Source: Deltaproteobacteria bacterium | GTDB taxonomy: Bacteria; Bdellovibrionota; JAJCYS01 | Direction: 5' to 3' | DNA length: 64,000 nucleotides | Assembly: GCA_029262815.1 (NCBI GenBank) | Contig: JAJCYS010000038.1 | Coordinates: 15,182 to 79,181, forward strand | Shown: positions 9,418 through 50,135 of the stretch, one piece after another | Layout: every line of letters begins with the position of its first letter | Numbering within the stretch: position 1 is the stretch's first letter | Notes under the pieces: model-generated | Databases searched by the model: none | What the model saw: only the letters and a program-made list of their open reading frames with translations | Told to the model about the DNA's origin: nothing | Translations under genes and position numbers: made by a program

Positions 9418-10125
9418 TTAGATATCTATTGTTTTGGGCAGTTCTTGTTTTTTTTCTTCAACCTTTAATTGATCAGGCCGGATGTATTTATAAGTCTTAA
9501 CAGATTTTTCGGGGTTGTAATGTTTTTGGACCCATTCTTCGATGTCCATTTCTTTTTGGTGTGGTTTATAAGATTTTATGATGGTTTCAAACGTACAAGT
9601 TCCTGTACATAGATGGCCAAACTTATGGGAAAAAGATTTTCTCGCTTCTTTGGCGGACTCACCGTGAATAATAATTCTTGCTAATGCGCTAGCAAAACTG
9701 GTTCGATCCGCACCAGCTTTACAATGAATGAGTACTATTTTTTTCTCAGCTTTCACTTTTTTGATGGCTTGAATTAAATCGATTAGTAACTTCTTGTTGG
9801 GAAATCCGCCTGTCGCATTGAGATATGGCTTTGCATCGCCGATATCAAAAAACATGTCATAATAATCGACACCCAATTTTTTGACGACTTTCTTCTCTTC
9901 TTCGTAGTAGGACTGACCTACTTTAACCCCGTTTAGGTTAATCACAGCTTGTACGTTGTTAATCGTTAAAACTTCTTCAAGTTTAGACGCGTCTAATTGA
10001 GCCGTACGAAGAATTTTATGAGGATGGCTGGGATCTCCAACTTGATGGATGTTATTACCGCATCCCGAAAGAGTAACGGCAGCAAATCCAAGATAAACCG
10101 AAACGGTTAGAATATTTGCATTCAT
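9418..10125 (-). CDS. lipoprotein Cys-based protein phosphatase (CX5R, PTP/dual-specificity-like)
   Basis: HCKAGADRTS P-loop; N-terminal signal peptide with lipobox-like LSGC. Confidence 0.65.
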   Translation of the reverse strand: MNANILTVSVYLGFAAVTLSGCGNNIHQVGDPSHPHKILRTAQLDASKLEEVLTINNVQAVINLNGVKVGQSYYEEEKKVVKKLGVDYYDMFFDIGDAKPYLNATGGFPNKKLLIDLIQAIKKVKAEKKIVLIHCKAGADRTSFASALARIIIHGESAKEARKSFSHKFGHLCTGTCTFETIIKSYKPHQKEMDIEEWVQKHYNPEKSVKTYKYIRPDQLKVEEKKQELPKTIDI

Positions 10126-10335: not shown

Positions 10336-12198
10336 TCACTCTTCTTCATGAATTTCCACCCATTGAACTTCTTGAGGTTTCAGAAAACCATGTTTTATCA
10401 ATGCTTCTCTAATAACCTTTTCTACATCAGAGTCCCCATCGTCTCCACCTTCAAACTCTAATCGTTTTTTGAGCAGCTTCGCTTCCTCGTCACTCAACTT
10501 CGCCTTTGCTGCTTTATAGGCATAAGCGGCTATGAACCTCGTTGACCAATTCCTTTTAGTACTCAGCTTCGCTTCGTTCTTAAACTGTGACAACACATTA
10601 TGTGCATCCAGCGCTTCAGCGATGGCTCTCAGTACTTTTGGATCGCGTTCTTCCAATAATTGATTTATGAGGTGCTCTTTCTCTGTATCACCAAATTCTT
10701 TTGATACCCCATAAGCTTGTACTGTCGCTTCACGCAAGTATCTACTCGACGCGGTTAAGAAATCTGCATTTTTTAATTCAGGCATTGCATCATTGTTTTC
10801 AAGTACCTCTTTAATCAATTTAAATACTGTCGAATCGTCTTCAACTTTGAGTTGGTCAAGTAACCACGTTTTTTCATCCGAGGTCAAAGGCGATTTAGTT
10901 TTATATGCCAGCACTGCAGATAGTCGGATTTTCCAGCGGCTTGCGTTCAGAAATTCTTTCGTGCCATATTCTGGCTTTACATTATGCTTCTTAAGCGCTT
11001 GGAGAACAAGATCAATATAAATGTCTTTTTCCTCAGTTTTCAGCCGGTTCAATAAATACTTCTGATCAATTTCCACAAGTGGACTCACCACGTCTTCATA
11101 TGCGTAAATTGCAACAAATCGAATAGCCAGACTCTCTGAATTCAAATGGGTATGCGATTTAAATTCCGATAAAAGATTATGTTTTTTATACAGCTTCACA
11201 TAGGCGGCTACAACGTCAGTGTCTTCATCATATCCCAGAGTATCGTTTTCATCTTCCAGATATTTTTTAAGTAGGTTTTTCTCCTTTTCAGTCGGTTTTT
11301 TTCCCGCCTCATAAGTCTGCAGTGACAACAGTTTTAGATTCCTATTATCAGACCCAAGAAAAATCTTCGATTTCAACTCATCTACTGTGTGATGTTTTTT
11401 TATGGCAACAATAAGCACACCTGTAACATCAGAATCGTCTTCTTCATTCAATTGACTAATTAATTGAGTCTTTTCGTCAGGGGTGAGTGACTCAGCGTTT
11501 TCATACGTATGGGCTGCCGCTTGACGTACTTTCCACCTTTCAGAGCTCAAGTCTTCTTTATTTTTAAACGCAGCTAACGCCTTATGTTTCTTAAGCGTCT
11601 GGATGATAGCATCAGACACATAATCGTCCGATTCAACTTTAAATTGCGCAACAAGCGACACTATTTCTTCTGGCGTCAATGATTCTTTCTTCTCATATGT
11701 TCGAGCCGCAGCAAGTCGAAACGCACTCTTATCTGACTCAAGAGAAACCTGACTCATCATTTCTTTTGGTAACGCATCAAACTTAGCGAGAACTCTCAGA
11801 ATAAGATTCTTGAATCGTTCTTTTTTTTCTTGTTTTAACAAATTGAGGAATGCTTCTTTTTCTTTTGGGGTAATACTTTTGGCTCTCAAGTAACCCCTTG
11901 TCACTTCAAATCGAAGACGTGCATTTTTTGCAGTAAGATATTTGAGCTGATTCAAATTGATTTTGATCCCTTTATCCTTTAGGATACTGAAAACTTTTCT
12001 TATTGACTCTTCGTCAGGCGAACTGATTATCGTGTTTTCCAATCTCAAAATATCTTCGTTTGTTAGTTTACTCTTTTTGGACAGTTGCTCCACGCCTTGA
12101 TTAGATAATGAGGAACCACTCTGTGAGCCACAACCGCTACTAAATACAATCATGAGGGAGAAACAAAGAACTAAACCTATTTTCTTTTTAGACCACAT
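10336..12198 (-). CDS. secreted/lipoprotein with HEAT-like (PBS-lyase type) repeats
   Basis: 620 aa; signal peptide MWSKKKIGLVLCFSLMIVFSSGC; recurring blocks such as RWKVRQAAAHTYENAESLTPDEK...EEDDSDV; paralog of 12380-13267. Confidence 0.6.
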   Translation of the reverse strand: MWSKKKIGLVLCFSLMIVFSSGCGSQSGSSLSNQGVEQLSKKSKLTNEDILRLENTIISSPDEESIRKVFSILKDKGIKINLNQLKYLTAKNARLRFEVTRGYLRAKSITPKEKEAFLNLLKQEKKERFKNLILRVLAKFDALPKEMMSQVSLESDKSAFRLAAARTYEKKESLTPEEIVSLVAQFKVESDDYVSDAIIQTLKKHKALAAFKNKEDLSSERWKVRQAAAHTYENAESLTPDEKTQLISQLNEEDDSDVTGVLIVAIKKHHTVDELKSKIFLGSDNRNLKLLSLQTYEAGKKPTEKEKNLLKKYLEDENDTLGYDEDTDVVAAYVKLYKKHNLLSEFKSHTHLNSESLAIRFVAIYAYEDVVSPLVEIDQKYLLNRLKTEEKDIYIDLVLQALKKHNVKPEYGTKEFLNASRWKIRLSAVLAYKTKSPLTSDEKTWLLDQLKVEDDSTVFKLIKEVLENNDAMPELKNADFLTASSRYLREATVQAYGVSKEFGDTEKEHLINQLLEERDPKVLRAIAEALDAHNVLSQFKNEAKLSTKRNWSTRFIAAYAYKAAKAKLSDEEAKLLKKRLEFEGGDDGDSDVEKVIREALIKHGFLKPQEVQWVEIHEEE

Positions 12199-24525: not shown

Positions 24526-25965
24526 ATGGACTGCTTTATGACAAATCATCTGATTCCAGACCAAAAAACTTCAAACGCTCTCAAAAAAAACCTTAAACTC
24601 CACTTTGTCGGCATTGGCGGATGTGGGATGGGCCCTCTCGCCTATTTGCTTGCCAAAGAAGGACACCGCGTTACGGGCAGTGACGCTTCTTCTTCTGACA
24701 TGACCATTCAACTTACAAATTCAGGCATTTGCGTACATATAGGTCATGATGCAACCCATGTTGAATCGCCTGATTTGGTCATTTATAGCAGTGCGATCCC
24801 CTCTTCAAATTGTGAACTAACAGCTGCTCGTGAGAAAGCCATCCCAACATACCCTCGAAGCAGACTCCTGGCTGATCTAGTCAGACGGTACGATAGCATC
24901 GTGGTTTCGGGCTCCCATGGCAAAACAAGCACCACAGCCCTCCTATATTGGGCCTTGAGACATCTGGGCCAAAACCCTTCAACCGTTTTTGGCAGCCATC
25001 TCATGAATGAACCCATGTCTGCCCATCTTTCTGATAGCCCTCTATTTGTAGTAGAAAGTGATGAAAGTGATCGCTCTTTTCTCTCTTTTCATCCAACCGT
25101 GGCTATCGTAACCAATATCGATCGAGAACATTTAAGCGCTTATGGCACCTTTGAAAACCTAGCCCTTGCGTTCGAGCGATTTGCCAAACAAGTACCGTTT
25201 TACGGGTTTACCGTTTTATCTGCTGATTGTCCTCACAGCCGAAAGATTTTCAAACGCATGAGCCATAAAGTAACGACGTTTGGGTTTCATCCGGATGCCT
25301 CGTTCAGAGTTGATCCGAGAACACTTTCAAACAACCTAATCAGTTCTTTTGAAGTCATTGAAGGTCAGTCAACTTATCGCATTCATTGTCAGATATTGGG
25401 TCAGTTCCAAGTAAAAAATATGTTGGCGGCCGTGGCAACCTTGCGAACCATGGGGTTTACGGCCGAGTCTCTTGAATTTGCTTTTGAAGATTTCCCAGGT
25501 GTTGAGCGCCGACTCCAGGTTCTACATCGTCATCCTTATACCTTGATTAGTGATTATGCACACCATCCGACAGAACTCGAAGCGGTTTTTTCTGCTGTTT
25601 CAGCCTTTGCCCCGGATGTGACGCTCATCTTCCAACCTCATCGGTACAGTCGTTTCATGTCCCATGCCCATACTTTCCTCGACTTACTCAAGCGTATTCC
25701 AAAAGCCGTCATTCTCCCACTATACGGTGCGGCTGAACAACCGCCACCTGACTTCGATGCGTTTTGGAAAGAGTGGTCAACCACCCTTAACCAACAAGCT
25801 TCGGGACACGTTTCTTTTATTAACGAGTCTGAGTTTAACGACATCCTTCGATCCGTACCCTCAGGCGGTACTGCACTTTGCTGCGGTGCTGGCTCCATTC
25901 ATCGTATGGCACTTGCATCCTCAACGGAATGTGCCACAACCCTTGTTGCATCTCATGCCATTTAA
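24526..25965 (+). CDS. murC: UDP-N-acetylmuramate--L-alanine ligase
   Basis: LHFVGIGGCGMGPLA nucleotide-binding motif; GSHGKTSTTA P-loop; 479 aa. Confidence 0.9.
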   Translation: MDCFMTNHLIPDQKTSNALKKNLKLHFVGIGGCGMGPLAYLLAKEGHRVTGSDASSSDMTIQLTNSGICVHIGHDATHVESPDLVIYSSAIPSSNCELTAAREKAIPTYPRSRLLADLVRRYDSIVVSGSHGKTSTTALLYWALRHLGQNPSTVFGSHLMNEPMSAHLSDSPLFVVESDESDRSFLSFHPTVAIVTNIDREHLSAYGTFENLALAFERFAKQVPFYGFTVLSADCPHSRKIFKRMSHKVTTFGFHPDASFRVDPRTLSNNLISSFEVIEGQSTYRIHCQILGQFQVKNMLAAVATLRTMGFTAESLEFAFEDFPGVERRLQVLHRHPYTLISDYAHHPTELEAVFSAVSAFAPDVTLIFQPHRYSRFMSHAHTFLDLLKRIPKAVILPLYGAAEQPPPDFDAFWKEWSTTLNQQASGHVSFINESEFNDILRSVPSGGTALCCGAGSIHRMALASSTECATTLVASHAI

Positions 25966-26893
25966 AAACCTCGAAAATTTTCTGACGCAATCCCATATTC
26001 CTTTTCAAAAGGATGTGCCGTTGTCACAGTTGACAACTGTCGGGATCGGCGCACGTGTGCCTTATTGGATTTTGCCGGCGACAGTTGATCAATTGCTATC
26101 AACTGCTCATATCCTTCAAAAGCTAACGATTCCCGTATGGATTCACGGTCAAGGCAGCAATATGTTATTTCACCTTGATCAGGACCCCTATCCCGGTGTG
26201 TTACTCTCTTGGCTCCCCACAAAGGCGCAGATGCCGCTTAGTCCGTTTGAACCCCAATTGATCCATTCAGGACTCCGAAAATCCCAACTTGCTACTTTTC
26301 TTTCGAAACACAAAATTCAAGATGCCATTTGGTTACACGGTATCCCAGGCACTTTGGCTGGTGGCCTCGCAATGAACGCGGGCACGCCGTTGGGTTGCTT
26401 TTCTGATATTGTCCACGAAGTCACGTGGATCAACCTTAAATCACAAACCTTCTCTCAATCACATCCTCAAAAAGATCAGTTTGGATATCGCTCCCAAACT
26501 CTGTGGAATACAGATCAACTTATTACGGAATGTAGTTTTATATTCAGATCCCCTGATGAATCCACATCTTTTGCAGAACAGTTTGCTCGGGCCCGCCAAT
26601 ATCGAAAGCAAACACAACCGCTGACAGACAAAAGTTTTGGCTCCACATTTCGTAATCCAAAACCGCAATTTGCGGGTGCCCTAATCTCCGAAAGTGGGCT
26701 CAAAGGTTTTCAAGTGGGGGAAGCGATGATCAGCCCTCACCATAGCAACTTTTTTATCAATACAGGCCAAGCCCAATCTCACGATATGCTAACCCTCATC
26801 AAAACGGCCCAAGAAAAGATCTTCAAAGATCATGGAATCGAATTGGTTCCTGAGGTTAAAATCGTAAGCAAATTCGACACCCTAAGTGACTAA
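25955..26893 (+). CDS. murB: UDP-N-acetylenolpyruvoylglucosamine reductase
   Basis: Follows murC with 11-nt overlap. Start set at ATG 25955 (MPFKNL); the ORF-track start at 25664 lies inside murC. Confidence 0.8.
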   Translation: MPFKNLENFLTQSHIPFQKDVPLSQLTTVGIGARVPYWILPATVDQLLSTAHILQKLTIPVWIHGQGSNMLFHLDQDPYPGVLLSWLPTKAQMPLSPFEPQLIHSGLRKSQLATFLSKHKIQDAIWLHGIPGTLAGGLAMNAGTPLGCFSDIVHEVTWINLKSQTFSQSHPQKDQFGYRSQTLWNTDQLITECSFIFRSPDESTSFAEQFARARQYRKQTQPLTDKSFGSTFRNPKPQFAGALISESGLKGFQVGEAMISPHHSNFFINTGQAQSHDMLTLIKTAQEKIFKDHGIELVPEVKIVSKFDTLSD

Positions 26894-26934: not shown

Positions 26935-27672
26935 GTGGCATGGAAGACACCATACGGAATCCTATTGGGCTGCTTTCTTTGGAGTCACATGGGATTTGCT
27001 CAAGAGGAGCGACGCATCCTCGATGTGCGTGGACCCACGACCCATCTCAGCAAAGTACACAACCGTCAAAAATCTTCAGGATTTAAACTTGGCTTTTCTC
27101 TTGCTTCACAACTCCCACTAGAAACACTCGCGGTTGCTGTCGACAACATTGATCCTACCAAAACAGCTGACTTTGTTGCTAAGGCGACTTTTCACGGCCA
27201 ACTGTCCATCGCATTCATGTTGTTTCATCGGCTGGAAATTTTTGGATTTGTTGGGTTTGGGCTGTGGTCTGCTGACGCTGTCTTAGATGCAGCCATCTTT
27301 GAGAGTCTGACACTCGACTTGAGTATGTTTGAGGGAGGAGCGGGTGCGCTCTATAAGTTCTTCAGTGGGGATATTCTCCCATATCTGATTGTCTATTTTG
27401 GCGGCTCGTCGACTACGGCCGATCTATTCAAAAACAACGATATTGGACTTCAGGAAGGCGAACAAGCCACGTTGTTTTACGGCGGCGCTGGCGCGGGTGT
27501 GGAAGTTTATCTGACACCTCACTGCGGATTTCGGATACAGTTTGTGGGTTTGTTTTATAACGATTTAGTCGACTTGGATGTTTTTATTGGTGGGGGGGGA
27601 ATCGAGCAAGCCGATTTGCCAGAACGCTGGGTCAATCTACTCATCACAACAGGGCTTTTTTATGAATTTTGA
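26935..27672 (+). CDS. putative outer-membrane beta-barrel protein
   Basis: Signal peptide; Gly/aromatic-rich alternating pattern; C-terminal ...LFYEF ending in Phe, typical of OMP barrels. Confidence 0.5.
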   Translation: MAWKTPYGILLGCFLWSHMGFAQEERRILDVRGPTTHLSKVHNRQKSSGFKLGFSLASQLPLETLAVAVDNIDPTKTADFVAKATFHGQLSIAFMLFHRLEIFGFVGFGLWSADAVLDAAIFESLTLDLSMFEGGAGALYKFFSGDILPYLIVYFGGSSTTADLFKNNDIGLQEGEQATLFYGGAGAGVEVYLTPHCGFRIQFVGLFYNDLVDLDVFIGGGGIEQADLPERWVNLLITTGLFYEF

Positions 27673-27708
27673 CTCTCTATATAATAGAGAAGAGAGGGGG
27701 GAGCAACC

Positions 27709-28341
27709 ATGAGTCAAATTATTGGTTTTTTTCAACAAGGGGGGATGTTTATGATACCGATCGCCCTGTGTTTGCTATTTAGTGTGGTTATCAGTATTGA
27801 ACGGTTCTTCAAAGTCTATTACCTGTATAGCATCGACAGCACCTCCTTTATTTCCAAAGTTCAAAATCTGACCCTTCAAAAAAATTACGACCAAGCCATT
27901 TCGCTCTGCAACTCAAAGGAAACAGCTCTTTTACCCCGCGTTATTAAATCCGCACTTCAGGGAGCCAACGAAACAGAACACAAAGTAAACATCCGAATCG
28001 AAGAAGCTACGTTGGGCGTACTGCCGCTTATTGAAAAAAGACAATCCATCCTGCCGATGATTGCAAACGTTGCCACACTGCTCGGACTGCTCGGTACGAT
28101 TGTGGGCTTAATCGAAGCCTTTGGTGCGGTTGCATCAGCCGAACCTGCCTTAAAAGCTGAGCTGCTCACACAGTCCATTTCGATCGCGATGAACACAACT
28201 GCATTTGGATTGATTGTGGCGATTCCCACCAATATTTTCCACACCATCATTCAAGAGCGGGCTACAAAAATCATCGGAGATATCGATCAGTATGCCGTAC
28301 GTATTTCTCATTTATTAAGCTTGAGTAGTGCTAAAGGATAG
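27709..28341 (+). CDS. MotA/TolQ/ExbB-family proton channel
   Basis: 210 aa; three TM segments with LLGLLGTIVGLIEAF block typical of ExbB/TolQ. Confidence 0.75.
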   Translation: MSQIIGFFQQGGMFMIPIALCLLFSVVISIERFFKVYYLYSIDSTSFISKVQNLTLQKNYDQAISLCNSKETALLPRVIKSALQGANETEHKVNIRIEEATLGVLPLIEKRQSILPMIANVATLLGLLGTIVGLIEAFGAVASAEPALKAELLTQSISIAMNTTAFGLIVAIPTNIFHTIIQERATKIIGDIDQYAVRISHLLSLSSAKG

Positions 28342-28347
28342 AAGAGC

Positions 28348-28896
28348 ATGAGACCTCCCAGCCAGCGAAGTTATCGTCGCAAACAGGAACAGGAACTCGA
28401 ACTCACGCCGATGATGAGCCTTTTTGTTGGGCTGGTACCTTTTCTGTTAACGCTTGCCGTATTCACAAAAGTGACCTTAATCTCCCTGCCCTTGCCAAAA
28501 GTAGCCCAAACAGAACAAGAGATCCGAAAAGTAGAGAAGGAAAAATTCTATCTCAGGGTGTATATCATCGATCGTAAGACAAAAAACCAAGTCCGTGGGC
28601 GACCGGGATTCGTGGTAGATAGCAACGCCTTTCGCAAAGGACCCAAATTTCTGCCCCTAACCAAAGAGAAGTCGTACGACACAACGGGGCTCAACGCCGT
28701 AATGCTTGAGGTTAAGAAGAAGAATATCAAACGGAAAAATGTCATTATCATTTCGGGTAAATATGTAGGGTTTCAGGATTTGGTCAGGACTTTAGATGCG
28801 ACACGTGAAATTCTACCCGAATTGGCTGTGAACAATCCTGAACTTCTAGGTGTAGAGCTTTTTCCTGACGTTATTATGGATGAGGCAGGTAGTTAG
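28348..28896 (+). CDS. ExbD/TolR-family protein
   Basis: 182 aa; single N-terminal TM preceded by a LELTP motif. Confidence 0.6.
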   Translation: MRPPSQRSYRRKQEQELELTPMMSLFVGLVPFLLTLAVFTKVTLISLPLPKVAQTEQEIRKVEKEKFYLRVYIIDRKTKNQVRGRPGFVVDSNAFRKGPKFLPLTKEKSYDTTGLNAVMLEVKKKNIKRKNVIIISGKYVGFQDLVRTLDATREILPELAVNNPELLGVELFPDVIMDEAGS

Positions 28897-29422
28897 AGAT
28901 ATGAGTCGATTTAAATCGAAACGTCGCGCTCGAGCCCAAACGCCGCAGCTTCAAATCACATCACTCCTTGATATTATGACGGTACTGCTTTTCTTTTTGC
29001 TCAAAAGCTTTGGCACCACACCTGAATTGAACATTTCAAAAAATCTTGAATTACCTAAAAGTGTCAGCACACGACCTGCGGTTTATGCGTTGAATATCGC
29101 CGTTTCAAAAAACGAGATCTCAGTTGATGGAGAGTCGATTATCGCATTGCAAGGCATCAGCAAGGAGACAAAACGTTTGCCTCAAGCTGTATTTCGGAGA
29201 GATCCTGATTTGATTGCTCCGCTCTTTGAACTCTTGGCCAAAAAGAGAAGTTACGCCGCTAAACTTGCAAAACGCGATCCGCTTATAAAATTCAAAGGCG
29301 ACTGTATCATTCAAGCTGACCAAGACACGCCATTTCACATTATTAAAAAGGTGCTCTATACGGCTGGTCAGGCTGGGTATTTGATGCTCAATGTCGCGAC
29401 CTTGTCGACAAAAGATATTTAA
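28880..29422 (+). CDS. ExbD/TolR-family protein (second copy)
   Basis: ITSLLDIMTVLLFFLL TM block; likely start at MSRFKS (28901). Confidence 0.6.
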   Translation: MRQVVRDMSRFKSKRRARAQTPQLQITSLLDIMTVLLFFLLKSFGTTPELNISKNLELPKSVSTRPAVYALNIAVSKNEISVDGESIIALQGISKETKRLPQAVFRRDPDLIAPLFELLAKKRSYAAKLAKRDPLIKFKGDCIIQADQDTPFHIIKKVLYTAGQAGYLMLNVATLSTKDI

Positions 29423-29430
29423 GTAAAGTT

Positions 29431-29474
29431 GGATCCCCGCTCCTTCTTCGTCATCCCTGCCTTCGCAGGGATCC
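29431..29474. repeat. family B-type palindromic element (reverse orientation)
   Basis: GGATCCCCGC...ATCCCTGCCTTCGCAGGGATCC; hairpin ATCCCTG / CAGGGAT with CCTTCG loop. Confidence 0.6.
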
Positions 29475-29486
29475 ATTTCGACTTAC

Positions 29487-29537
29487 TGCCAAAAGGGTGC
29501 CGGGGAACCTTAGTGCTTTGGGGAACCTAAGTGCTTT
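29487..29537. repeat. family A repeat, 1.5 units (TGCCAAAAGGGTGCCGGGGAACCTTAGTGCTTTGGGGAACCTAAGTGCTTT)
   Basis: Same GGGGAACCTAAG core as the 10182-10335 array; here upstream of the plus-strand CDS 29605-31929. Confidence 0.7.
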
Positions 29538-29604
29538 CCCACCTACTTCCAAACAGCAATTCCTGATATACTACTCACAAGAAATTAGATTCGAGGGGGA
29601 AAGA

Positions 29605-31929
29605 ATGAGATTTCTGAATGTTTTAACTGTACTTTTTTTTATCGGCACGGCAATTGAATTTGAATCATGCAATCCGGCGCCCCCAGCGGACAACAATGTA
29701 GCTGCAGCTCCTGGAGTCGACGATTCAGTTGTTGACATAGAAACTCTAGGTGGTGGCGGAGGCGGTTCCGATAATCCGGATGACACAACTACGGTTTGCC
29801 AGGAAGGAGACATAGATGACAAAGTTGCTGCGGGCACTACAGCTCTATTGTCTGGTGAAGTCGACACAGGTGCGACACCTATAGTCGTTGTATGGCCAAC
29901 TAATGGAGATTCCTGGCTCAGCGGGTTTGAGACAAATACAGACCCTGGAATTCTATTCGATAGTGTAGATTTAACCGGTACATTTGGTGAACTGGGCGCT
30001 ACTGGCGGTACCGGGGACGATACGGATGCTAACTTTTTACTTCAAAATGGCTCTGACGACGTATTCTATCTTGAGGTTACAGGCCGTTTTTCGTCTGCTG
30101 TAGGGGACTACGAAGACGCAGCCCTATCTGCTGATGCAGATTTTATCGGAACTGTGCTTGATGGTACTGGAGATTTAAGTACCTGTTTTGAATATCCGAT
30201 TACAGATGGCACAACACCCAGCTTAACTAACCTAAATGGGGCAAATGATCATTGTAGCGACATCGTAGCCTCAGGGCCACCGACCGGTACTCGAGTTTGG
30301 TACGTAACGGTTGTCGATGATGTGTCAGCAACTTCCGGCACAGCTGCACGAAAACAAGTCGGCACATGTACGGGGGGAGCAGTATGTGTTTCTTTGACCT
30401 CTGAATCAGGTTTCAATTCTGAAGTAGAGGACGTCAATCAAGAAGGCACTTTTGTATTTGTTCGAAACGGCGATGGCACAGCTGCAGCACCCCTCACTGG
30501 CAATCAGTCCATCTATCGATTCACGGTTGCGTCACCTACAACCGCACCTGTCCGGCTCACAGACGGCACTCAAGGTGCTTGTACAGCTGCAAGATTATTC
30601 GGAGATTCGGCCGCCAGCTCTGCTGGTACTGTCCTCTTGACCGCATGTGGTGGCGATGTCTGGGGCATCACTGACCCCTTTGGTACAACACCCGGTTCAC
30701 CGATTTTGTTATTCGATCACGCCACGGTGGACATTGATGTTCTTGTAGGAAGTCCTATGGAATCAGACAAAACGGGACGAGGTTTCACACGTGTTGCCAT
30801 TCCGTCTATGACAACGCCTACAAAAAAATCTGTCATAGCCACCAATACCCCTGTTGGCCTGAATTGTAATGCCGGTGGTAGCGGCACAGCTGCCTTGTCT
30901 TCATTCAGCTTCCTTTGGAATCTGGGCACCGCGACCTCTGGTTTTTCAAGCCTACTCAGACTTGTCAGTGGCTATAATCTGGGTAATGTACGCGATAGTC
31001 ATCTGGGAAAAGATGCAAACGGGGATTTTATTCGATTTGTAGTGTACGATAGCGACCCACAACGTGTGTACGCTTACTTTATCGGAGACAATATTGGCTT
31101 TCCGTTTGTAGCAGTTCGAACCAGGAGTGATACGGACACCTTCCTTGGCATGCATGTCACCAAAGACTTTATTTATGTTTTAGCGAGCAACATGAAAGTG
31201 TACCGCCGATCCAACACAGCAAAATGGGGAACACTGGGAAAAATTGAAAATGAAGTCGATGACTGGACACTCGTCACAACCATGCCAATGGGCACAAAAT
31301 CAATTGTCGTAGACGATTCCGTAGCAGGCGCACTTGATATCTTTTACGATGGCGATAGCCTAATTGATTCAAATAGAGCTTTTCTAAAACAAGGGTATAC
31401 CGTCGCTGGCACGACGTTCACACCTGTCGGCGTGCCGATCGAAAAATATAATTCTGGCTCATCATCAAATACATTACACGTTGATGATCTAACAAAAGTG
31501 GGTTCTCGTAGAAGCCTTTTTGGCCGCGATGACAATGGTAGTATTGTTAAGCCTATCATTGCTGATGTGCTTGATCCCACAAAATCTGTGGGGGACATGA
31601 GTTCCTTTGCCGGACTATCCTCGTGCCCCGCTGGGACGATGCGTGAACTCGTAGCGACGACCGACCCTGCATACAAAAAACTTGGCGGCCCAGATCCATC
31701 ATCTGGCACGTTCACATTTCACGCAACTGTTCTGGCTCCCTGCGGAGGCATTGACGAAGTCTGGGGCATCAATACCTTTGATAGAGTTTCTACATTTACA
31801 TCGACCGACCCCACTAGTCACAACAATTTTGGCACCACACCTGCAGGATGTAAGATTAATGGCCTTGAAATTCCAGAACCCGTAACTGCTGCAACTAAAA
31901 TAGATTGCCCACCCTTTGATACGCCATAA
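29605..31929 (+). CDS. large secreted Gly/Thr/Asp-rich protein, unknown function
   Basis: Start at ATG 29605 (MRFLNVLTVLFFIGTAIEF, signal peptide) preceded by GGGGGAAAG. 774 aa with no recognised catalytic motif; Gly-run GGGGGG near N-terminus. Confidence 0.6.
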   Translation: MRFLNVLTVLFFIGTAIEFESCNPAPPADNNVAAAPGVDDSVVDIETLGGGGGGSDNPDDTTTVCQEGDIDDKVAAGTTALLSGEVDTGATPIVVVWPTNGDSWLSGFETNTDPGILFDSVDLTGTFGELGATGGTGDDTDANFLLQNGSDDVFYLEVTGRFSSAVGDYEDAALSADADFIGTVLDGTGDLSTCFEYPITDGTTPSLTNLNGANDHCSDIVASGPPTGTRVWYVTVVDDVSATSGTAARKQVGTCTGGAVCVSLTSESGFNSEVEDVNQEGTFVFVRNGDGTAAAPLTGNQSIYRFTVASPTTAPVRLTDGTQGACTAARLFGDSAASSAGTVLLTACGGDVWGITDPFGTTPGSPILLFDHATVDIDVLVGSPMESDKTGRGFTRVAIPSMTTPTKKSVIATNTPVGLNCNAGGSGTAALSSFSFLWNLGTATSGFSSLLRLVSGYNLGNVRDSHLGKDANGDFIRFVVYDSDPQRVYAYFIGDNIGFPFVAVRTRSDTDTFLGMHVTKDFIYVLASNMKVYRRSNTAKWGTLGKIENEVDDWTLVTTMPMGTKSIVVDDSVAGALDIFYDGDSLIDSNRAFLKQGYTVAGTTFTPVGVPIEKYNSGSSSNTLHVDDLTKVGSRRSLFGRDDNGSIVKPIIADVLDPTKSVGDMSSFAGLSSCPAGTMRELVATTDPAYKKLGGPDPSSGTFTFHATVLAPCGGIDEVWGINTFDRVSTFTSTDPTSHNNFGTTPAGCKINGLEIPEPVTAATKIDCPPFDTP

Positions 31930-31950
31930 AACAAAGGCCTTGTTCTATTA

Positions 31951-31983
31951 CCCGGTGCGGAGTTCAATCCGCACCGGGTTTTT
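31951..31983 (+). terminator. intrinsic terminator (11-bp stem CCCGGTGCGGA / TCCGCACCGGG, loop GTTCAA, T5)
   Basis: Perfect inverted repeat followed by TTTTT; T-tract overlaps stop of convergent gene. Confidence 0.65.
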
Positions 31984-33131
31984 CACAGTCCAGAGCCTGC
32001 ACACCCTGACCAATACCGAATATACAGATCAACGACGTCTTCGCCAAATTGATGACTCATATTCTCTCGCACTCTAAAAATTTGTGAAACACCTAATTGG
32101 AAACCAGTCCCACTCTCTAAAGTCAATTCGTCAAATTGGCTGATCAGTTTTGGCGATCCATGTGTGTTCATTCGATCAATATCCTCAAGTATCACACTTA
32201 ACCACATATCTGATCCCACAAAATCACGTAACCCGTATCCTTCCTCTACCTCAAGCATAAATGGGACTAACAACAGTCGTTCCAACGCAGCAAGCGTAAC
32301 CATATCATCAACAGAAACCTGTTTTTTGAGGTGCTCTAGAAAAAGGGCCTCGTACATTCCTTTCCTTTGAAATTTTTCTTTATGCAACAATTCGACCAAG
32401 TAGCCTCCCGATACGAGTAGCATCGTAGAAGCAAAGCCTTTGTTGATTTCAATAAAATCTTGCAATATAAATTGCTTGATACTGATATCTGAAAATGGAT
32501 AGGCCAGTACTTTTGCTTTTAGGGGGTCCAAGTAAAACGAACGATAGTCTTTGTATATAAGACCTTCCTCTTCTTCAACCCGTTCAATCCAAGACCGTAA
32601 CTTATGATTTATGACCGTTGCTTTTGTACGTTTTAGATCAAGAGTCTCTTCTATCAGAGCGGCCTTAGGTAAATAAAATTCCATGCGTTCAAAGACCCCG
32701 TATAAATCCGTCAATGCATCTGCACGCACATAGATCAATCGTGCAATGGTTTGCAAATCTGCATCTCTCACGATCTTCGCTGCATTCAACTCGATCAACA
32801 TCTGAGCTTGTATATGTGCATCCATTAATTCCACCAGATGAAACTGAAACAGATCTACAGGTGTGATTTCGAACACTTGGTTTAATTTTTGAAATTCAGA
32901 AATTGTCAAAGGCCTGTTTTGCTCAGCAGCATCCATCAGCCCTTTCGCGGCTTGAAACTGTTTGATGGGAACAACTGCACCCAAATTTTCTGGATTAGAT
33001 TGAATTGTGCGAACGACTTCATCCAACCAACCGGTATCCCCAAATCCTACTTGGGCTGTCAACAGTAATACGACGAACAACACGACTCGACTCATCCTTT
33101 GCACATACCAATAGAGCCCCCCTTCTGTCAA
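31983..33131 (-). CDS. secreted hypothetical protein (alpha-helical by composition)
   Basis: 382 aa; probable start at MSRVVLFVVLLLTAQ signal peptide; no motif recognised. Confidence 0.55.
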   Translation of the reverse strand: MTEGGLYWYVQRMSRVVLFVVLLLTAQVGFGDTGWLDEVVRTIQSNPENLGAVVPIKQFQAAKGLMDAAEQNRPLTISEFQKLNQVFEITPVDLFQFHLVELMDAHIQAQMLIELNAAKIVRDADLQTIARLIYVRADALTDLYGVFERMEFYLPKAALIEETLDLKRTKATVINHKLRSWIERVEEEEGLIYKDYRSFYLDPLKAKVLAYPFSDISIKQFILQDFIEINKGFASTMLLVSGGYLVELLHKEKFQRKGMYEALFLEHLKKQVSVDDMVTLAALERLLLVPFMLEVEEGYGLRDFVGSDMWLSVILEDIDRMNTHGSPKLISQFDELTLESGTGFQLGVSQIFRVRENMSHQFGEDVVDLYIRYWSGCAGSGL

Positions 33132-33252
33132 GTATTTGCATTACCAAATCATCGCGAGCACAGTAGCAGGATGCGTAAGTCACATGATCGTTGAGTCTCT
33201 TTCCGTCTGGTCTAACTTGCAATCTATACTCAATTACTTTACCGTGATCTGA

Positions 33253-34290
33253 ATGTTGCTCGTATCTAATAAACAATCTCTTGTCTTACTTTTACTTTTT
33301 CTCAGCCCGTTAATGCTCAAAGCAGACCATCCAGAAAATTCAAGAACCTCAAATGATTCGGACACCCGAAAAGCCTGTAGTCTCAGTTACACCCTCTCAA
33401 AAATGCAACACCACAACCAAGCACCTTTCGAACACCCCACACGCCTTGAAATTGAAACCTGGAGTGAACGCTTACTCCCCGGGTTGTTGCAAGCTAAAAG
33501 CTACACACATTGGCCGGTTTCGACGCGAGTAGATCCTTGGGCCACTCTTTCCAAAATGGGTGAAGGCAATTGCGGGGATTGCGTTACGTACATGTTCGAT
33601 AGCATGACGCATCTTTTTGGCAACTCAAACGTATCCGTCGTCACAAATGGCTCACAACTGATCGGAAATTATCATCTAGGGGGCGGACATACGTTCTTTG
33701 CGGTTCAGTCATTCCAAAACAAACAGAAGTCCGACAGACTAATCGTCGATTATTCTTGGACCCAATGGTTCGCTCATCAAAATCAAAAACGAAATACCCT
33801 TCCACCGAACATCAAAGACGACCTCCCGTTAATCTTCGTGGGTACCTATGATGAACTGAAAAGTACTTTTGATACCCATCGAGAATGGCTACGTTACTCT
33901 TTTGATGATGCCTCGCTACTCACCTATGACGAGGTTTTATTCTTGCTGTACGACATCGATACGCTCGGCAACATTCGAAAGCGCGCAAAAATGCAATTAG
34001 ATGCTATTCAACGAAATGCGAATGTTCAGTTTGAAGCTATGACTCAAAAGAAAAAAACAATTGAAAGCTGCAGCAATCGAGAAATTTGGTCGGCTCTTAT
34101 TGAACTCAGTAGCCAAAAGAAAGTTGCTGTTGAAGTGAGTTACCGTCTTATCAGCGTCTTTGAGACACAAACACTCAAAGGGATTTTGACCCAACCGGAT
34201 CCCATGCAATGCGACCGGTTCGAAATAAATGGAAAAACATTCGAAGCGAATGACTTCGACAGCATTCGAGTCATCTCAGATCAAGAATAA
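33253..34290 (+). CDS. secreted hypothetical protein with Cys/His motif (possible papain/transglutaminase-like fold)
   Basis: Signal peptide; GEGNCGDCVTYMFD followed by HLGGGHTFF. Fold assignment is speculative. Confidence 0.5.
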   Translation: MLLVSNKQSLVLLLLFLSPLMLKADHPENSRTSNDSDTRKACSLSYTLSKMQHHNQAPFEHPTRLEIETWSERLLPGLLQAKSYTHWPVSTRVDPWATLSKMGEGNCGDCVTYMFDSMTHLFGNSNVSVVTNGSQLIGNYHLGGGHTFFAVQSFQNKQKSDRLIVDYSWTQWFAHQNQKRNTLPPNIKDDLPLIFVGTYDELKSTFDTHREWLRYSFDDASLLTYDEVLFLLYDIDTLGNIRKRAKMQLDAIQRNANVQFEAMTQKKKTIESCSNREIWSALIELSSQKKVAVEVSYRLISVFETQTLKGILTQPDPMQCDRFEINGKTFEANDFDSIRVISDQE

Positions 34291-34467
34291 GAGAATCACG
34301 CAGCCATCGGTTGATAGCTGCGTGAAACAGCCTCTCCATTCCCAGTAGGTTCCACTCCCAATTAGGGGTTATATCAAAAAATAATTTTTGACGCCATAAG
34401 AGAATGATAATCTAGGATTTGTTCTATTTAGGGGGAAATCATTAAGCGCTTACCCAATTGGGGTTAT

Positions 34468-36024
34468 TTGCCATGTATGGCCATATTATCAGCGACTATA
34501 GGCTGTTTATCAACGCCCCCTTTTTCGCTTGTACCACTGGTCTATCTCTACTTGATCCCTGTATTTATAGTGCTACACAACGGTGCCATTTCAACACGCC
34601 AGAAGATACTCTTTATCTTGTTTCACAGCTGGCTTATCGGCATTTCGAACCACCACTGGCTCTACTATGCCATTCATGAATTTGGCGGCATCGACAAACC
34701 CCTAGCCGTTCTATTAACGTGTGCTGTTAGCGCTGTCACCAATCTTGAATATGTCTTTGCGGGCCTCGCTGCAATTTTTACTTTGCGACGCTACCCGGCT
34801 ACTAGCTTGGCCGTTTATGGCATCGTGCATGTGGTATGTTTTTATTTTCCAGCGCTCAAGCTTTTCCCTTGGACCACAGGGTGCGTGCAAATCCTGTCAC
34901 CGATCATAGCGCCTGCGTATTATGTCTTAGGCCAAGCGGGCATGATGGGTGTAGTCTTATTTCTCAATACAGTATTGTATTATGCTTGGAGGCTTTACTG
35001 TTCAGGGATTAAAAATTATCGAATTTTTCTTGCACGTGATTTGGGTGCATGCATTTTATTTGTAGCGCTTTGTATCGGCTTCAAATGTTATCTCGACCAT
35101 CATAAGACAGACATGCAGTCTCAAAAAATACGGTTTCTCGTCGTTCAAGCCAACGTGATGAATTTCATGAAACAACAAGCTAAGGTTGGCCATTACCCAA
35201 CCATTCGAAAGACCATCAAAATATATATCCGAAAAACGAACCAGGCATTGAAGAACCTGGCTATCCCACCATCCAAAGAAAGCCCAGTTGTTGTCATTTG
35301 GCCTGAATCCGCTTACCCCTTAAGTTTCCCCACCCCTATCAGCTGGAAATCACGACGCATGAACCCGTACCTCAGTAACTGGATGAACCAACATGAATTT
35401 GTGCACTTTATCTTTGGAGCCACAAGTCACAATGCTGTTTGGTTCAATAATCATCAGGTGAAAGGCATCTACAAAAAGATACATCTACTGCCGTTTGGTG
35501 AATACATGCCTTATAAAAAACATATGCCAGCTTGGGTACTCAAACTGTGGGCTCAAAATCGCAACCCCACTCCGGGAACTGAATGGGCGGCATGGCCACT
35601 CACCGACACCCTAACACTAGTACCCACAATTTGTTACGATGCCTTATTCCCACAAGCAAGCCATTTTGCAATCCAAAATCACGCACACTTGTTTCTTAAT
35701 TTAACAAAAGATGGTTGGTTTGTTGTCCGTCGTGCCCAAGAGCTCCATCTCATGATGGCTCGAATTCGATCTGCCTCAACAGGCATCCCTATGCTTCGAT
35801 CTACAAACACCGGAATCACCGCATGGATAAACAGTAATGGACAAATTGAAGAACAGCTGCCGATTAACCAGATGAAAACATTATCCCTAGAAAAACAGTT
35901 CCCTCGATCTCAAACCCCACGATACTGGTTCTGGATTCAAAATCTTATTAGTTGGTTGTTTTTAATTGTTTGGTTTTGGCGATGTAGGAATTGGCACCAA
36001 CATGCACTGACAGGTAGCGTTTAA
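34468..36024 (+). CDS. lnt: apolipoprotein N-acyltransferase
   Basis: N-terminal multi-TM region; C-terminal CN-hydrolase domain with VVIWPESA and ICYDALFP (catalytic Glu and Cys blocks). Confidence 0.8.
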   Translation: MPCMAILSATIGCLSTPPFSLVPLVYLYLIPVFIVLHNGAISTRQKILFILFHSWLIGISNHHWLYYAIHEFGGIDKPLAVLLTCAVSAVTNLEYVFAGLAAIFTLRRYPATSLAVYGIVHVVCFYFPALKLFPWTTGCVQILSPIIAPAYYVLGQAGMMGVVLFLNTVLYYAWRLYCSGIKNYRIFLARDLGACILFVALCIGFKCYLDHHKTDMQSQKIRFLVVQANVMNFMKQQAKVGHYPTIRKTIKIYIRKTNQALKNLAIPPSKESPVVVIWPESAYPLSFPTPISWKSRRMNPYLSNWMNQHEFVHFIFGATSHNAVWFNNHQVKGIYKKIHLLPFGEYMPYKKHMPAWVLKLWAQNRNPTPGTEWAAWPLTDTLTLVPTICYDALFPQASHFAIQNHAHLFLNLTKDGWFVVRRAQELHLMMARIRSASTGIPMLRSTNTGITAWINSNGQIEEQLPINQMKTLSLEKQFPRSQTPRYWFWIQNLISWLFLIVWFWRCRNWHQHALTGSV

Positions 36025-37250
36025 AATATCCCTAAAAAATGCCCGCCTTCGACACCCAATAACAAAATCGAAGCAATGCATCCAAGCACAGGCAACACTA
36101 GGGTTGAATTGGGCATTTTCTTTTTCAACGCCAGTTTAATCAACGACAGATTTACAAATACGAAAATACATAAAATGACGAAGCTTGTCGCTTTTGCCAA
36201 CGTCACGATCGGAAAAAAAGCAGCGGAACCAAAAATCAAAATCGACACACCCACAGTCGCCCATATTGGGGTCTGAAATTTCGTGTGCACTTTGCTCAAA
36301 AAAGAGAGAGCGTACCCTTGACAGGCTAGTCCATAGATCACGCGCGAAGCCATGATAATTTGAATCAGAGCGCCGTTAATAACAGCCACTAAACTAATTA
36401 ATGCAATAAGCTTGGGTGACCCGAAGCCCGCTTTTTGGATCACAAGCGACAAAGGTGCCGTAGTGTATTTAAGCTCATCAGGACTGAGTATCGAAACCGT
36501 AATCCAAGAAACGGCAACATAAAACAAAGAACCCAAAACCAACGCTATTCCAATCGCTTTTGGCATGGTGTACTTCACATCAATAACTTCTTCAGCCACA
36601 TTCACCATATCTTCAAATCCGATGAACGCATAAAAAGAAACAAATGCACCGAGTGCAATGCCCAAAAAACCCGGTTCGATTTTGGTTGCAACCTCAGCCA
36701 CAACTACGGAGTCGATACTCATCCACCCCACGCCCATCACCCACAATAGACCTGCGATTTCGATACAGGTGATCACAAACGCTAACATCACAGATTCAAA
36801 AATGCCCCAAACAGCAATCAAACCCAATATAAAAACAAGTACCGCGATCACTGCTAAATCGGGGACAGACAAGAACACCTGCAGATATCCCACAAACCCT
36901 TTAACGAGCGTCGCCGCTGAAACACACCCCGTAAACACCACCAACCATCCAATACTTTTAGATAGCCAAGGTTTTCGAAATGCTTCAAAAACATACACGG
37001 CTTCGCCAGCGCTTTTCGGATAGAGCACAGCCAATTTCGCATACGAATAAGCCGTCAACCCCGCAACGCCCCCAGCAACCAAAAATGAGATCGGTGCATA
37101 GGTCCCCGCGATAGCACCCACCTTCCCCACGAGCACATAAATCCCAGCACCTAATATGGTCCCCAATCCATAAAACGTAAGGAGTGGTAACGTCAGGGTT
37201 CGTTTTAAAGCGGGTTGTTTTTGCGACATATACACAATATTACGACACAA
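36021..37250 (-). CDS. APC-family amino acid permease
   Basis: 409 aa polytopic membrane protein; N-terminal FYGLGTILGAGIYVLVG typical of the APC superfamily. Confidence 0.8.
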   Translation of the reverse strand: MCRNIVYMSQKQPALKRTLTLPLLTFYGLGTILGAGIYVLVGKVGAIAGTYAPISFLVAGGVAGLTAYSYAKLAVLYPKSAGEAVYVFEAFRKPWLSKSIGWLVVFTGCVSAATLVKGFVGYLQVFLSVPDLAVIAVLVFILGLIAVWGIFESVMLAFVITCIEIAGLLWVMGVGWMSIDSVVVAEVATKIEPGFLGIALGAFVSFYAFIGFEDMVNVAEEVIDVKYTMPKAIGIALVLGSLFYVAVSWITVSILSPDELKYTTAPLSLVIQKAGFGSPKLIALISLVAVINGALIQIIMASRVIYGLACQGYALSFLSKVHTKFQTPIWATVGVSILIFGSAAFFPIVTLAKATSFVILCIFVFVNLSLIKLALKKKMPNSTLVLPVLGCIASILLLGVEGGHFLGIF

Positions 37251-37323
37251 GGTTAGACCATTAAAGTACTTGCTTCAAAAAAATTAATCGCGAATTAAAT
37301 CTTTATGTATAGAACAAGTTTTT

Positions 37324-37381
37324 GGATTCCCCTCGCAGACGCTCGCGACGGGGATGATAAAAAAAGACAGGAATGACAAGG
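37324..37381. repeat. family B palindromic element GGATTCCCCTCGCAGACGCTCGCGACGGGGATGATAAAAAAAGACAGGAATGACAAGG
   Basis: Shares GGATTCCC and GGAATGACA termini with 14177-14214. Confidence 0.6.
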
Positions 37382-37386
37382 AAAAG

Positions 37387-37665
37387 TTATTCAGGCCATT
37401 CTACGAGAAGTTCATTCTCAGCTAGATAACCCGTTTGCAATCGAATGACCCGCTCTCGATACCGTCTATCATGCTTGAAGATTTGGATGGTGTGCTGAAG
37501 TGCCTCAAGCTCTTGCTTAAGCAACACCAGCTCCTGATCAAATTTTTTCTTCTTTTGATACAAAGTCCAAAGTGTCTGCACACCCTTTGATTCAAAATAA
37601 GAAATAGTCCCTACAGCTGAGACCACGATTCCCACACACACACTATGTATTAAAAAACGTCTCAC
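37387..37665 (-). CDS. FtsB/DivIC-like small coiled-coil membrane protein
   Basis: 92 aa; N-terminal TM, central coiled coil, C-terminal RERVIRLQTGYLAENELLV resembling the FtsB C-terminal block. Confidence 0.5.
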   Translation of the reverse strand: MRRFLIHSVCVGIVVSAVGTISYFESKGVQTLWTLYQKKKKFDQELVLLKQELEALQHTIQIFKHDRRYRERVIRLQTGYLAENELLVEWPE

Positions 37666-38078
37666 CGCTTAGATGTTCGCTCCGTTGCAATACTAAATTT
37701 CGTTACCTTATTGCGTTGTAATATATCAAAAATCTTGACCACTATACCATGGGGGGTGGCTTTGTCCGCTTCGATTAATAATTGCTTCTCAGTCAAGCTC
37801 GGCATATTTTTGATCGTTGTTTCTAGCTCTTGAGCGGTAATCGGTTTTGATCGCCAATAAATTTGGCTTTTTTCATCAATCGAAATCACCAACGGCACAC
37901 TTTCCCCCGTTCCTTTTTGCATACTGGTCTTCGGCAGATCAATCTGGAGCGGGTTATGTTTGATGAATGTAGTAGACACCATAAAAAAGATTAACAATAA
38001 AAACACCACATCAATGAGCGGTGTCAAATCAATCGAAGGCACCTCTTCAGAAACCGATTGTTCATCAAATTTGATCAT
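37662..38078 (-). CDS. ExbD/TolR-family protein
   Basis: IDLTPLIDVVFLLLIFFMV canonical ExbD/TolR motif; 138 aa. Confidence 0.8.
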   Translation of the reverse strand: MIKFDEQSVSEEVPSIDLTPLIDVVFLLLIFFMVSTTFIKHNPLQIDLPKTSMQKGTGESVPLVISIDEKSQIYWRSKPITAQELETTIKNMPSLTEKQLLIEADKATPHGIVVKIFDILQRNKVTKFSIATERTSKR

Positions 38079-38700
38079 GTCGCTTCTCTAAGAACAGGGT
38101 TTCGTACACGTTATCTAACTCTGATTCAATCGCGGTCATAATCGTCAAAGATCGATTTCGAATCACTTTATGAGCCACAAATGTTGGAATCGCAACCAAC
38201 AATCCAGCGATCGTAGTCAACAAAGCTTCAGATATCCCCCCCGCTAAGTGGCTTGCATTTCCTAACCCATGGGTATTAATCGTCTGAAAGACATGCATCA
38301 TCCCAAGCACCGTACCCAACAACCCCAAAAGAGGTGCAATACTGGCAACCGTCGAAAGCATATCCACACCACGCATCAATTGCTTTTGGACCATCGTCAT
38401 CGGCCCACGCATCCTTTCAGCGGTTTCTTTGGATCCGTGTGATTGATACTCCAACATTTTTAACACGAGATAACTCACCGGACGGTTCGAATGTTTAAGA
38501 CGCCCGATCACTTCATTTGCCTGATCAGAACCTAAATGCTTCAACTCATTAAGCAACGACTTAGGCAAATGATACCCATTTCGTAAATACACCAAACGTT
38601 CCAAAAAAACGGCCAGTGAAACCACAGAAATTAACAAAATAACCCCAAGGACAGGCCCGCCTTGTTCGAATAACGCTACCCAATCAATTGTCATAATCAA
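38065..38700 (-). CDS. MotA/TolQ/ExbB-family proton channel
   Basis: 211 aa; IAPLLGLLGTVLGM block. Confidence 0.8.
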   Translation of the reverse strand: MIMTIDWVALFEQGGPVLGVILLISVVSLAVFLERLVYLRNGYHLPKSLLNELKHLGSDQANEVIGRLKHSNRPVSYLVLKMLEYQSHGSKETAERMRGPMTMVQKQLMRGVDMLSTVASIAPLLGLLGTVLGMMHVFQTINTHGLGNASHLAGGISEALLTTIAGLLVAIPTFVAHKVIRNRSLTIMTAIESELDNVYETLFLEKRHDQI

Positions 38701-48431: not shown

Positions 48432-48462
48432 GTACTAACCTACCCAACTGTAGGTCAAAAAA

Positions 48463-50132: not shown

Positions 50133-50135
50133 ACC

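Follow-up and report, generated by a model that had tools for sequence, protein, structure and literature searches.

What does a motor of the TolQ/ExbB type drive when the transducers usually encoded beside it are not found in its surroundings? The question is raised by four consecutive open reading frames (ORFs) at positions 26935-29422 of a 64-kb stretch of DNA, here called the window, from a Deltaproteobacteria bacterium of the Bdellovibrionota (contig JAJCYS010000038.1). The four are co-directional on the plus strand, separated by gaps of 36, 6 and 4 bp, and encode a putative small outer-membrane beta-barrel protein, a MotA/TolQ/ExbB channel subunit (ExbB1) and two ExbD/TolR paralogues, ExbD1 (or ExbDa) and ExbD2 (or ExbDb), which occupy the positions of AglQ and AglS, respectively. 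The module is preceded by murC-murB (24526-26893) and followed by a large ORF without a family match. An earlier note on this DNA had described a barrel, one channel and two ExbD/TolR proteins without a linked TonB or TolA, arranged as in the AglRQS gliding motor of Myxococcus. Pfam, AlphaFold2 and Foldseek agree with this account of the four ORFs, and a Pfam scan of all window ORFs of at least 130 aa bears out the lack of TonB and TolA. The trio is likely an AglRQS-clade proton motor that has become unlinked from its Agl-Glt transducer and scaffold genes, the transducer being either encoded elsewhere or replaced.

The assignment begins at the level of families. Pfam MotA_ExbB matches the channel at 82 bits (E 3.9e-23), and Pfam ExbD matches ExbD1 and ExbD2 at 37.8 and 48.5 bits; ExbD2 has an alternative start at 28880 that would lengthen it to 180 aa, and the gene caller's start agrees with 28901. 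Finer resolution comes from clade profiles that exclude the window's own lineage, the channel profile being built from 82 Glt-linked ExbB genes. ExbB1 scores 277 bits on this profile, against 116 for TolQ2, another channel protein of the window. The two paralogues sort just as cleanly, with ExbD1 at 116 bits on the ExbDa profile and 17 on ExbDb, and ExbD2 at 151 bits on ExbDb and 23 on ExbDa. A neighbor-joining tree nests ExbB1 among Glt-linked ExbB genes and sets the window, together with two contigs of its lineage (L004 and L002), beside two Bdellovibrionota loci that carry gltF-gltG-exbB-exbDa-exbDb.

Homologues of ExbB1 number in the thousands. Those just outside its lineage have a length of about 217 aa and share 46-52% identity with it, and identity reaches 52% with the ExbB of an mglBA-gltCDEF-exbB-exbDD-gltG cluster. 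The clusters of two looked-up homologues read mglB-mglA-x-TPR(~800 aa)-TPR(~1200 aa)-TPR(~530 aa)-(~89 aa)-exbB-exbD-exbD-(~455 aa). Their neighboring proteins match NCBIfam models for GltG (two proteins scored, at 156 and 255 bits, under the model cut-off of 650), the AgmX/PglI C-terminal domain (90-108 bits, cut-off 40), GltE (103 bits) and GltC (100 bits), and weakly CglF, a model that we take to be GltF. The channel-lining threonines (in LLGT and NTTAFG) are invariant in a 13-sequence alignment. Judged from sequence, the trio is a member of the AglRQS-clade motors, of the Agl-Glt core-complex type. The AglRQS-like arrangement pointed out earlier thus reflects homology and not mere gene order, because both the lineage-free profiles and the tree place the trio in this clade.

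The same Pfam families serve Ton systems, some of which have two ExbD genes. Since only 64 kb of the genome are visible, ExbB1-ExbD1-ExbD2 might instead be a Ton-type energizer of nutrient uptake, as in Xanthomonas and many Bacteroidota, with TonB and its receptors encoded elsewhere. The NCBIfam equivalog models argue against this: ExbB models give ExbB1 33-36 bits (cut-offs 135-206), the TolQ model 46.7 bits (cut-off 221), and the TolR model gives ExbD2 19.3 bits (cut-off 127). ExbD1 matches no NCBIfam model, and ExbD models match neither paralogue; the firm placement of both copies in canonical TonB-ExbD clades that the earlier note would have counted against its reading is thus not observed. 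Solved TolQ and ExbB chains match ExbB1 at 24-29 bits, and solved ExbD and TolR chains have no significant match to either ExbD1 or ExbD2. The nearest relatives of the trio all lie in Glt-type clusters, none beside TonB, and the Pfam scan of window ORFs of at least 130 aa finds no TonB_C, TolA, TolB, Pal/OmpA_C, Plug, TonB_dep_Rec or vWA domain. A Ton-type role is therefore very unlikely.

If the trio is an AglRQS-clade motor, its usual company can be defined by survey. Scanning 185,579 species, one genome each, with the channel alignment yielded 80 loci from Myxococcota, Bdellovibrionota/Bacteriovoracaceae/Oligoflexia, Marinobacter, Paraglaciecola, Cellvibrionaceae, Nitrospirae and KSB1. With gene profiles built from two reference clusters, gltD/E/F-exbB-exbDa-exbDb-gltG is recovered in nearly every one of them, and wherever a reference locus has both ExbD genes, exbDa precedes exbDb (80 of 80). 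Among the 66 loci whose downstream sequence extends for at least 1.5 kb, a custom hidden Markov model (HMM) detects a GltG-type gene in 58, directly downstream of the trio in 46; NCBIfam adds three Bdellovibrionota-type loci, for a total of at least 61 of 66. This gene set corresponds to the core complex that Luciano et al. 2011 (PMC3169522) defined as aglR, aglQ and aglS with gltD, gltE, gltG and gltC.

The window departs from this pattern. Full-length and C-terminal GltG profiles find no GltG in its six-frame translation (best E 0.74), nor do Pfam and NCBIfam, and neither GltG nor TPR scaffold genes occur in the 26 kb upstream and 34 kb downstream of the trio. The earlier note had left the energized partner of the module unnamed; the partner usual for this family, which is GltG and not TonB or TolA, is likewise not found in the window. 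Gliding cannot be inferred for the trio, because the majority of organisms with a core complex are not known as gliders, and the core by itself does not suffice for motility (PMC3169522). As a separate observation, two sister Bdellovibrionota loci, L043 (6344-7939) and L042 (3-1610), encode a secreted protein of 531-535 aa ahead of gltF-gltG-exbB-exbDa-exbDb; a domain scan of the L043 copy alone shows OmpL47-type multi-beta-barrel domains (NCBIfam, 203 bits).

The two ExbD paralogues differ at the residue on which proton coupling is expected to depend. A conserved aspartate in the transmembrane (TM) helices was one of the features that the earlier note proposed to look for, and it proved to be present in one paralogue only: ExbD2 keeps it (LLDIMTV), and ExbD1 has serine where the proton-binding Asp is expected (LTPMMSLFVG). 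This asymmetry extends well beyond the window. In a TM alignment of 86 loci the first ExbD most often carries Asn (56 loci), followed by Asp (17), Ser (9), and Gly and Ala (2 each), so that Asp is missing from 69 of 86; the second ExbD carries Asp in 82 of 83. First ExbDs of the Asp type come mainly from Bdellovibrionota-type loci and from stand-alone Anaeromyxobacter trios that resemble M1 of M. xanthus. Within the window's own lineage the site is D, G or S.

A non-Asp first ExbD is thus typical of the clade: by sequence it sets core-complex-type trios apart from the M. xanthus M1 type and is compatible with clade membership. In a published AlphaFold model (PMC11761067), five AglR subunits enclose a heterodimeric AglQ-AglS plug, with GltG docked on the pentamer. 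The Asn/Ser-versus-Asp pattern fits such a predicted heterodimeric plug and suggests that one proton-binding residue per motor may be enough. For M. xanthus itself, PMC3858216 reports that the D28N substitution in AglQ abolishes function. The passages of the literature on these motors that were available contain no mention of a clade-wide Asp asymmetry.

Loss of the aspartate might alternatively be a symptom of decay, the trio being a degenerating remnant whose Glt partners have been lost. GltG is indeed absent from the window, and the ExbD1 site varies among close relatives, as described above. Yet all three ORFs are intact in five members of the lineage at 54-74% identity; the five ExbD1 orthologues alone share 54-62% identity and 54 invariant positions. 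Long invariant motifs persist (LPLPKVAQTE, PKFLPLT, LDATRE and ELFPDV), as do the ExbD2 aspartate and the threonine ring of ExbB1, and intact Glt-linked clusters, too, usually have a first ExbD without Asp. That the trio is a decaying remnant is hardly credible. The genes of the module and the neighbors discussed below are collected in Table 1.

Table 1. Genes of the motor module and related neighboring genes in the 64-kb window.
Feature	Coordinates	Strand	Remarks
Small outer-membrane beta-barrel protein (putative)	26935..27672	+	245 aa; lineage-specific; signal-peptide-like N-terminus, AlphaFold2/Foldseek, synteny
ExbB1, AglR-clade MotA/TolQ/ExbB channel subunit	27709..28341	+	210 aa; Pfam MotA_ExbB, clade profile
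ExbD1 (ExbDa, AglQ position), first ExbD/TolR paralogue	28348..28896	+	182 aa; Ser at canonical Asp site
ExbD2 (ExbDb, AglS position), second ExbD/TolR paralogue	28901..29422	+	173 aa; Asp retained
Putative secreted protein/lipoprotein	29605..31929	+	~775 aa (810-aa ORF); module membership doubtful
FtsB/DivIC-like single-pass protein	37387..37665	-	92 aa; TM helix, coiled coil, C-terminal ...GYLAENELLVEW
TolR2, canonical TolR/ExbD	37662..38078	-	138 aa, Asp present; Pfam ExbD 112 bits, NCBIfam TolR 72.5
TolQ2, second TolQ-like channel, neighbor outside the trio	38065..38700	-	211 aa; Pfam 103 bits, NCBIfam TolQ 82.5

The first gene of the module is far less widespread than the motor. Its only Pfam match is OMP_b-brl at 22.5 bits, under the gathering cut-off of 28.7, so homology at the family level is weak, and NCBIfam adds a weak match to TIGR04565 (OMP_myx_plus, 14 bits). 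The protein ends in ...LFYEF, with an aromatic last residue. An AlphaFold2 model computed on a 3-sequence alignment is all-beta with about 10 long strands (pLDDT, the predicted local distance difference test, 69; pTM, the predicted template modeling score, 0.62). Foldseek matches this model to solved barrels with E values from 1.9e-8 to 1e-5. The best match is the Legionella Dot/Icm porin III (E 1.9e-8, TM-score 0.60-0.65), and further ones are the OmpA transmembrane domain, NspA, Ail, OmpW and the OprF N-terminal domain. With its signal peptide, 8-10 predicted strands and C-terminal aromatic residue, the model has the hallmarks of a small outer-membrane barrel. An exhaustive phmmer search of 1.84 billion representatives returned two clear orthologues and a weak partial match to a 1456-aa protein, a word-based search returned the query itself alone, and the barrel profile has no match in the 80 Glt loci. 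As far as sequence searches reach, the barrel is specific to this lineage.

The lineage is sparsely sampled, being known from metagenomes through a small number of contigs from Logan, JGI and ENA. ExbD1 has only five relatives in a set of 5.8 billion clustered proteins; a scan of genome contigs with the ExbD1 alignment found none, nor did scans of metagenome contigs with the barrel and ExbD1 alignments. The barrel gene precedes the channel gene by at most 2.7 kb in the five lineage contigs, which are all those with upstream sequence. In contig L089 plsX is followed by murC-murB-lipoprotein(662)-lipoprotein(738, paralogue)-barrel(245)-exbB-exbDa-exbDb-tolQ2-tolR2-ftsB-aminotransferase IV, on a single strand from murC to aminotransferase IV and with gaps of a few bases. 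An ENA contig reads 652 aa-barrel-exbB-exbD-exbD-exbB2, and L002 reads murC-murB-lipoprotein(657)-barrel-ftsB-aminotransferase IV-426 aa-exbB-exbDa. L004 has murC-murB-sigma54 regulator-...-barrel-(two inserted small genes)-exbB-exbDa-exbDb, then PMT_2, an inverted ftsB-tolR2-tolQ2 and aminotransferase IV-455 aa-rodA-pbp2-mreD-mreC.

Cysteine-rich lipoproteins of 657-738 aa directly precede the barrel gene in three of the five contigs and are absent from the window. They are paralogous (L089 4765-9196; L002 3854-5827), with a lipobox followed by a Gly-rich acidic tether, and match no Pfam or NCBIfam model. By their position they are candidates for partners of the motor-barrel module at the surface or in the periplasm.

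The gene order of the window resembles that of L004: about 8 kb separate the trio from an inverted tolQ2-tolR2-ftsB. L004 shares this inversion, with the PMT_2 gene in between. In the window the insert (29423-37661, compared with L089 10001-13044) holds the 810-aa ORF, 382-aa and 345-aa proteins without assignment, lnt and an amino-acid permease gene. The tolQ2/tolR2 pair (37387-38700 with ftsB, minus strand) and the loss of the ExbD1 aspartate were both passed over in the earlier note. TolR2 has the transmembrane motif LTPLIDVVFLLL. The order tolQ-tolR-ftsB is common to the window, L004 and L089; the start of the ftsB-like gene overlaps the tolR2 stop by 4 nt, and the same 4-nt overlap is found in L089. 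Orthologues of the FtsB-like protein carry precomputed Pfam DivIC matches.

A histidine lies near the cytoplasmic end of the FtsB-like TM helix in four of four orthologues (LIHSV, WHLVG, WHLSL and QHMFL). TonB and TolA have a motor-contact histidine, of which this one is loosely reminiscent, and by that analogy the FtsB-like protein might be coupled to a motor.

This neighborhood invites another explanation, in which the trio is a second Tol-like or divisome-associated motor working with tolQ-tolR-ftsB in envelope constriction or outer-membrane tethering, the barrel serving as outer-membrane anchor. In L089 barrel-exbB-exbDa-exbDb-tolQ2-tolR2-ftsB form one few-base-gap array, with tolQ2 directly after exbDb on the same strand, and in the window, L004 and L089 the array is flanked by murC-murB and rodA-pbp2-mreDC. 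In the window, however, tolQ2-tolR2-ftsB is not followed by tolA, tolB or pal, and no TolA, TolB, Pal or CpoB is found anywhere in it. By sequence the trio groups with Agl-type motors and not with TolQR. Synteny within one narrow lineage may reflect mere inheritance, and the 8-kb insertion and inversion part the two motors in the window with neither disrupted. A Tol-like or divisome-associated role is accordingly unlikely.

The large ORF 3′ of the trio was considered as a further component. The gene of the ~775-aa protein starts 180 bp beyond ExbD2 and has its own ribosome-binding site. Its N-terminus shows a hydrophobic stretch and a cysteine followed by a Pro/Gly/Asp-rich linker. The protein has no match in Pfam, NCBIfam or PADLOC, and its single-sequence AlphaFold2 model (pLDDT 32) is unusable. 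It was rejected as a conserved member of the module, being missing from this position in L004 and L089, and as an analogue of TonB, TolA or GltG, having no TonB-like or AgmX domain. BLAST also detects no similarity between it and the lipoproteins of 657-738 aa encoded ahead of the barrel in relatives. A defense system such as Zorya was likewise rejected, since PADLOC matches none of the five proteins.

In the intergenic region 3′ of ExbD2 (29432-29537) the inverted repeat GGATCCC...GGGATCC encloses a loop of some 30 nt. Between it and the 810-aa ORF lies a tandem 18-bp repeat, GGGGAACCTTAGTGCTTT / GGGGAACCTAAGTGCTTT, with one mismatch. Together the two elements may represent a terminator plus a regulatory site. 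In a promoter and terminator scan such sites were no more frequent than expected by chance, and the scan does not define an operon.

Several points weigh against the assignment of the trio to an unlinked AglRQS-clade motor and against the tie between motor and barrel. Clade membership rests on gene context and on the NCBIfam matches of neighboring genes; the neighbor-joining tree carries no support values and excludes AglR, AglQ and AglS of M. xanthus. According to PMC9389320, both AglQ and AglS of M. xanthus carry the TM aspartate, unlike ExbD1. Searches by tblastn and HMM give no significant match to GltC/D/E/F, MglA or MglB in the window, and GltG, GltC/D/E/F, MglA and MglB were not detected in the examined parts of L002 and L004. 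The barrel-motor link comes from synteny within one narrow lineage. Finally, outside Myxococcales no function is known for the core complex (PMC3169522).

For an AglRQS-clade motor in this setting, a mechanism can be proposed. Five copies of ExbB1 would surround a heterodimeric ExbD1-ExbD2 plug (5:1:1), by analogy with the predicted AglR5-AglQ-AglS complex and the solved structures of TolQ5R2 and ExbB5D2. Proton flow would be coupled through ExbD2 alone, because the membrane-embedded aspartate is found on ExbD2 only, and the part of ExbD1 would be structural or that of a partner engaging the peptidoglycan. Force would then be passed to a transducer, either of the GltG type and encoded elsewhere in the genome, much as aglRQS and glt are unlinked in M. 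xanthus, or a replacement for it. GltG of relatives is an FHA-TM-linker protein with a TonB-like C-terminus whose gene adjoins those of the motor and the TPR scaffold proteins; these scaffold proteins carry the force to the outer membrane. The output is most likely an envelope-spanning pulling or transport function, and the barrel, together with the lipoproteins in relatives, is a candidate for its outer-membrane end. The ancestral neighbors of the trio were probably the Cys-rich lipoproteins upstream and tolQ-tolR-ftsB downstream.

A bolder extension of this scheme can be formulated. The motor would have lost its coupling to GltG and TPR scaffold proteins and been rewired to the lineage-specific barrel and Cys-rich lipoproteins, in an array with tolQ-tolR-ftsB. 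The result would be a minimal envelope machine, adhesion- or gliding-like or else linked to division, with a transducer that is no homologue of TonB, TolA or GltG, and core-complex motors would be obligate single-Asp heterodimers. Taken as a whole, this combination is speculative and rather improbable.

The AglRQS-clade motor belongs to a recognized family; what is unusual is its context. The core complex is widespread, occurring in Myxococcota, Bdellovibrionota, many Gammaproteobacteria, Nitrospirota and KSB1. A motor trio kept under apparent constraint without neighboring transducer or scaffold genes amounts to a natural dissection of the system. The lineage could show the minimum that the motor needs, or an alternative output, be it the small barrel with lipoproteins or the link to TolQR-FtsB.

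Elsewhere the window holds several features apart from the module. A 5S rRNA gene at 59606-59722 on the minus strand (Rfam, 95.7 bits) appears unlinked, with no match to 23S or 16S rRNA in the window. It overlaps the annotated start (59685) of an 811-aa ORF, whose true start probably lies further downstream (MTEKAQRW...). The 64 kb are devoid of tRNA genes. Six ORFs of 167-473 aa at 47928-53023 have no Pfam match and a G+C content of about 0.40, against 0.45 elsewhere; this segment may be a lineage-specific or acquired island. Domains typical of eukaryotes are encoded at 4903-6321 (Ser/Thr protein kinase), 9418-10125 (myotubularin/dual-specificity-phosphatase-like), 10336-12198 (HEAT-repeat lipoprotein) and 33253-34290 (weak PDDEXK_6 plus plant TIGR01615). 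They fit a Myxococcota/Bdellovibrionota-like or host-associated lifestyle.

Comparison with known systems places the trio more precisely. TolQ-TolR and ExbB-ExbD, with solved 5:2 motors (8odt, 5sv0 and 6tyi), share its Pfam families, a presumed 5:2 architecture and use of the proton-motive force. They differ in having a homodimeric plug, as opposed to the heterodimeric one predicted here, and their sequence similarity to the trio is weak; moreover, the window has no TolA or TonB and contains a separate canonical TolQR pair. A second parallel is provided by systems in which a tolQ-like gene and two dissimilar tolR-like genes can be combined with transducers other than TonB that bear a vWA domain (PMC12204202). 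Compared by gene makeup, these tolQ-tolR-tolR-vWA systems resemble the trio in combining one channel and two unlike TolR paralogues with an output that involves neither TonB nor TolA, although no vWA-domain protein or TPR gene is found in the window ORFs scanned. By analogy, an unconventional partner is conceivable for the trio as well.

AglRQS of M. xanthus (MXAN_6862-6860), the motor of both Agl-Glt gliding and Agl-Nfs spore-coat assembly, also consists of one TolQ/ExbB-like channel followed by two unlike TolR/ExbD genes. That trio is unlinked from the glt genes, and no glt genes are visible near the trio of the window. It falls in one clade with the core-complex motors (PMC3169522), with a predicted 5:1:1 stoichiometry and heterodimeric plug (PMC11761067). 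The two differ in that Asp is present in both AglQ and AglS, as opposed to the second paralogue only, and in channel length (245 aa for AglR, 210 aa here). In addition, neither GltG/GltJ nor MglAB is visible in the window, and a lineage-specific barrel gene adjoins the trio.

The closest counterparts are the Agl-Glt core-complex clusters (gltC/D/E/F-aglR-aglQ-aglS-gltG). At least 61 of 66 such loci include a GltG-type transducer, whereas the window's lineage has no linked GltG or TPR genes. The motors themselves correspond: the channels are 39-52% identical, both ExbD paralogues have their orthologues in matching order, and the same Asp asymmetry recurs, the first ExbD carrying mostly Asn or Ser and the second Asp.

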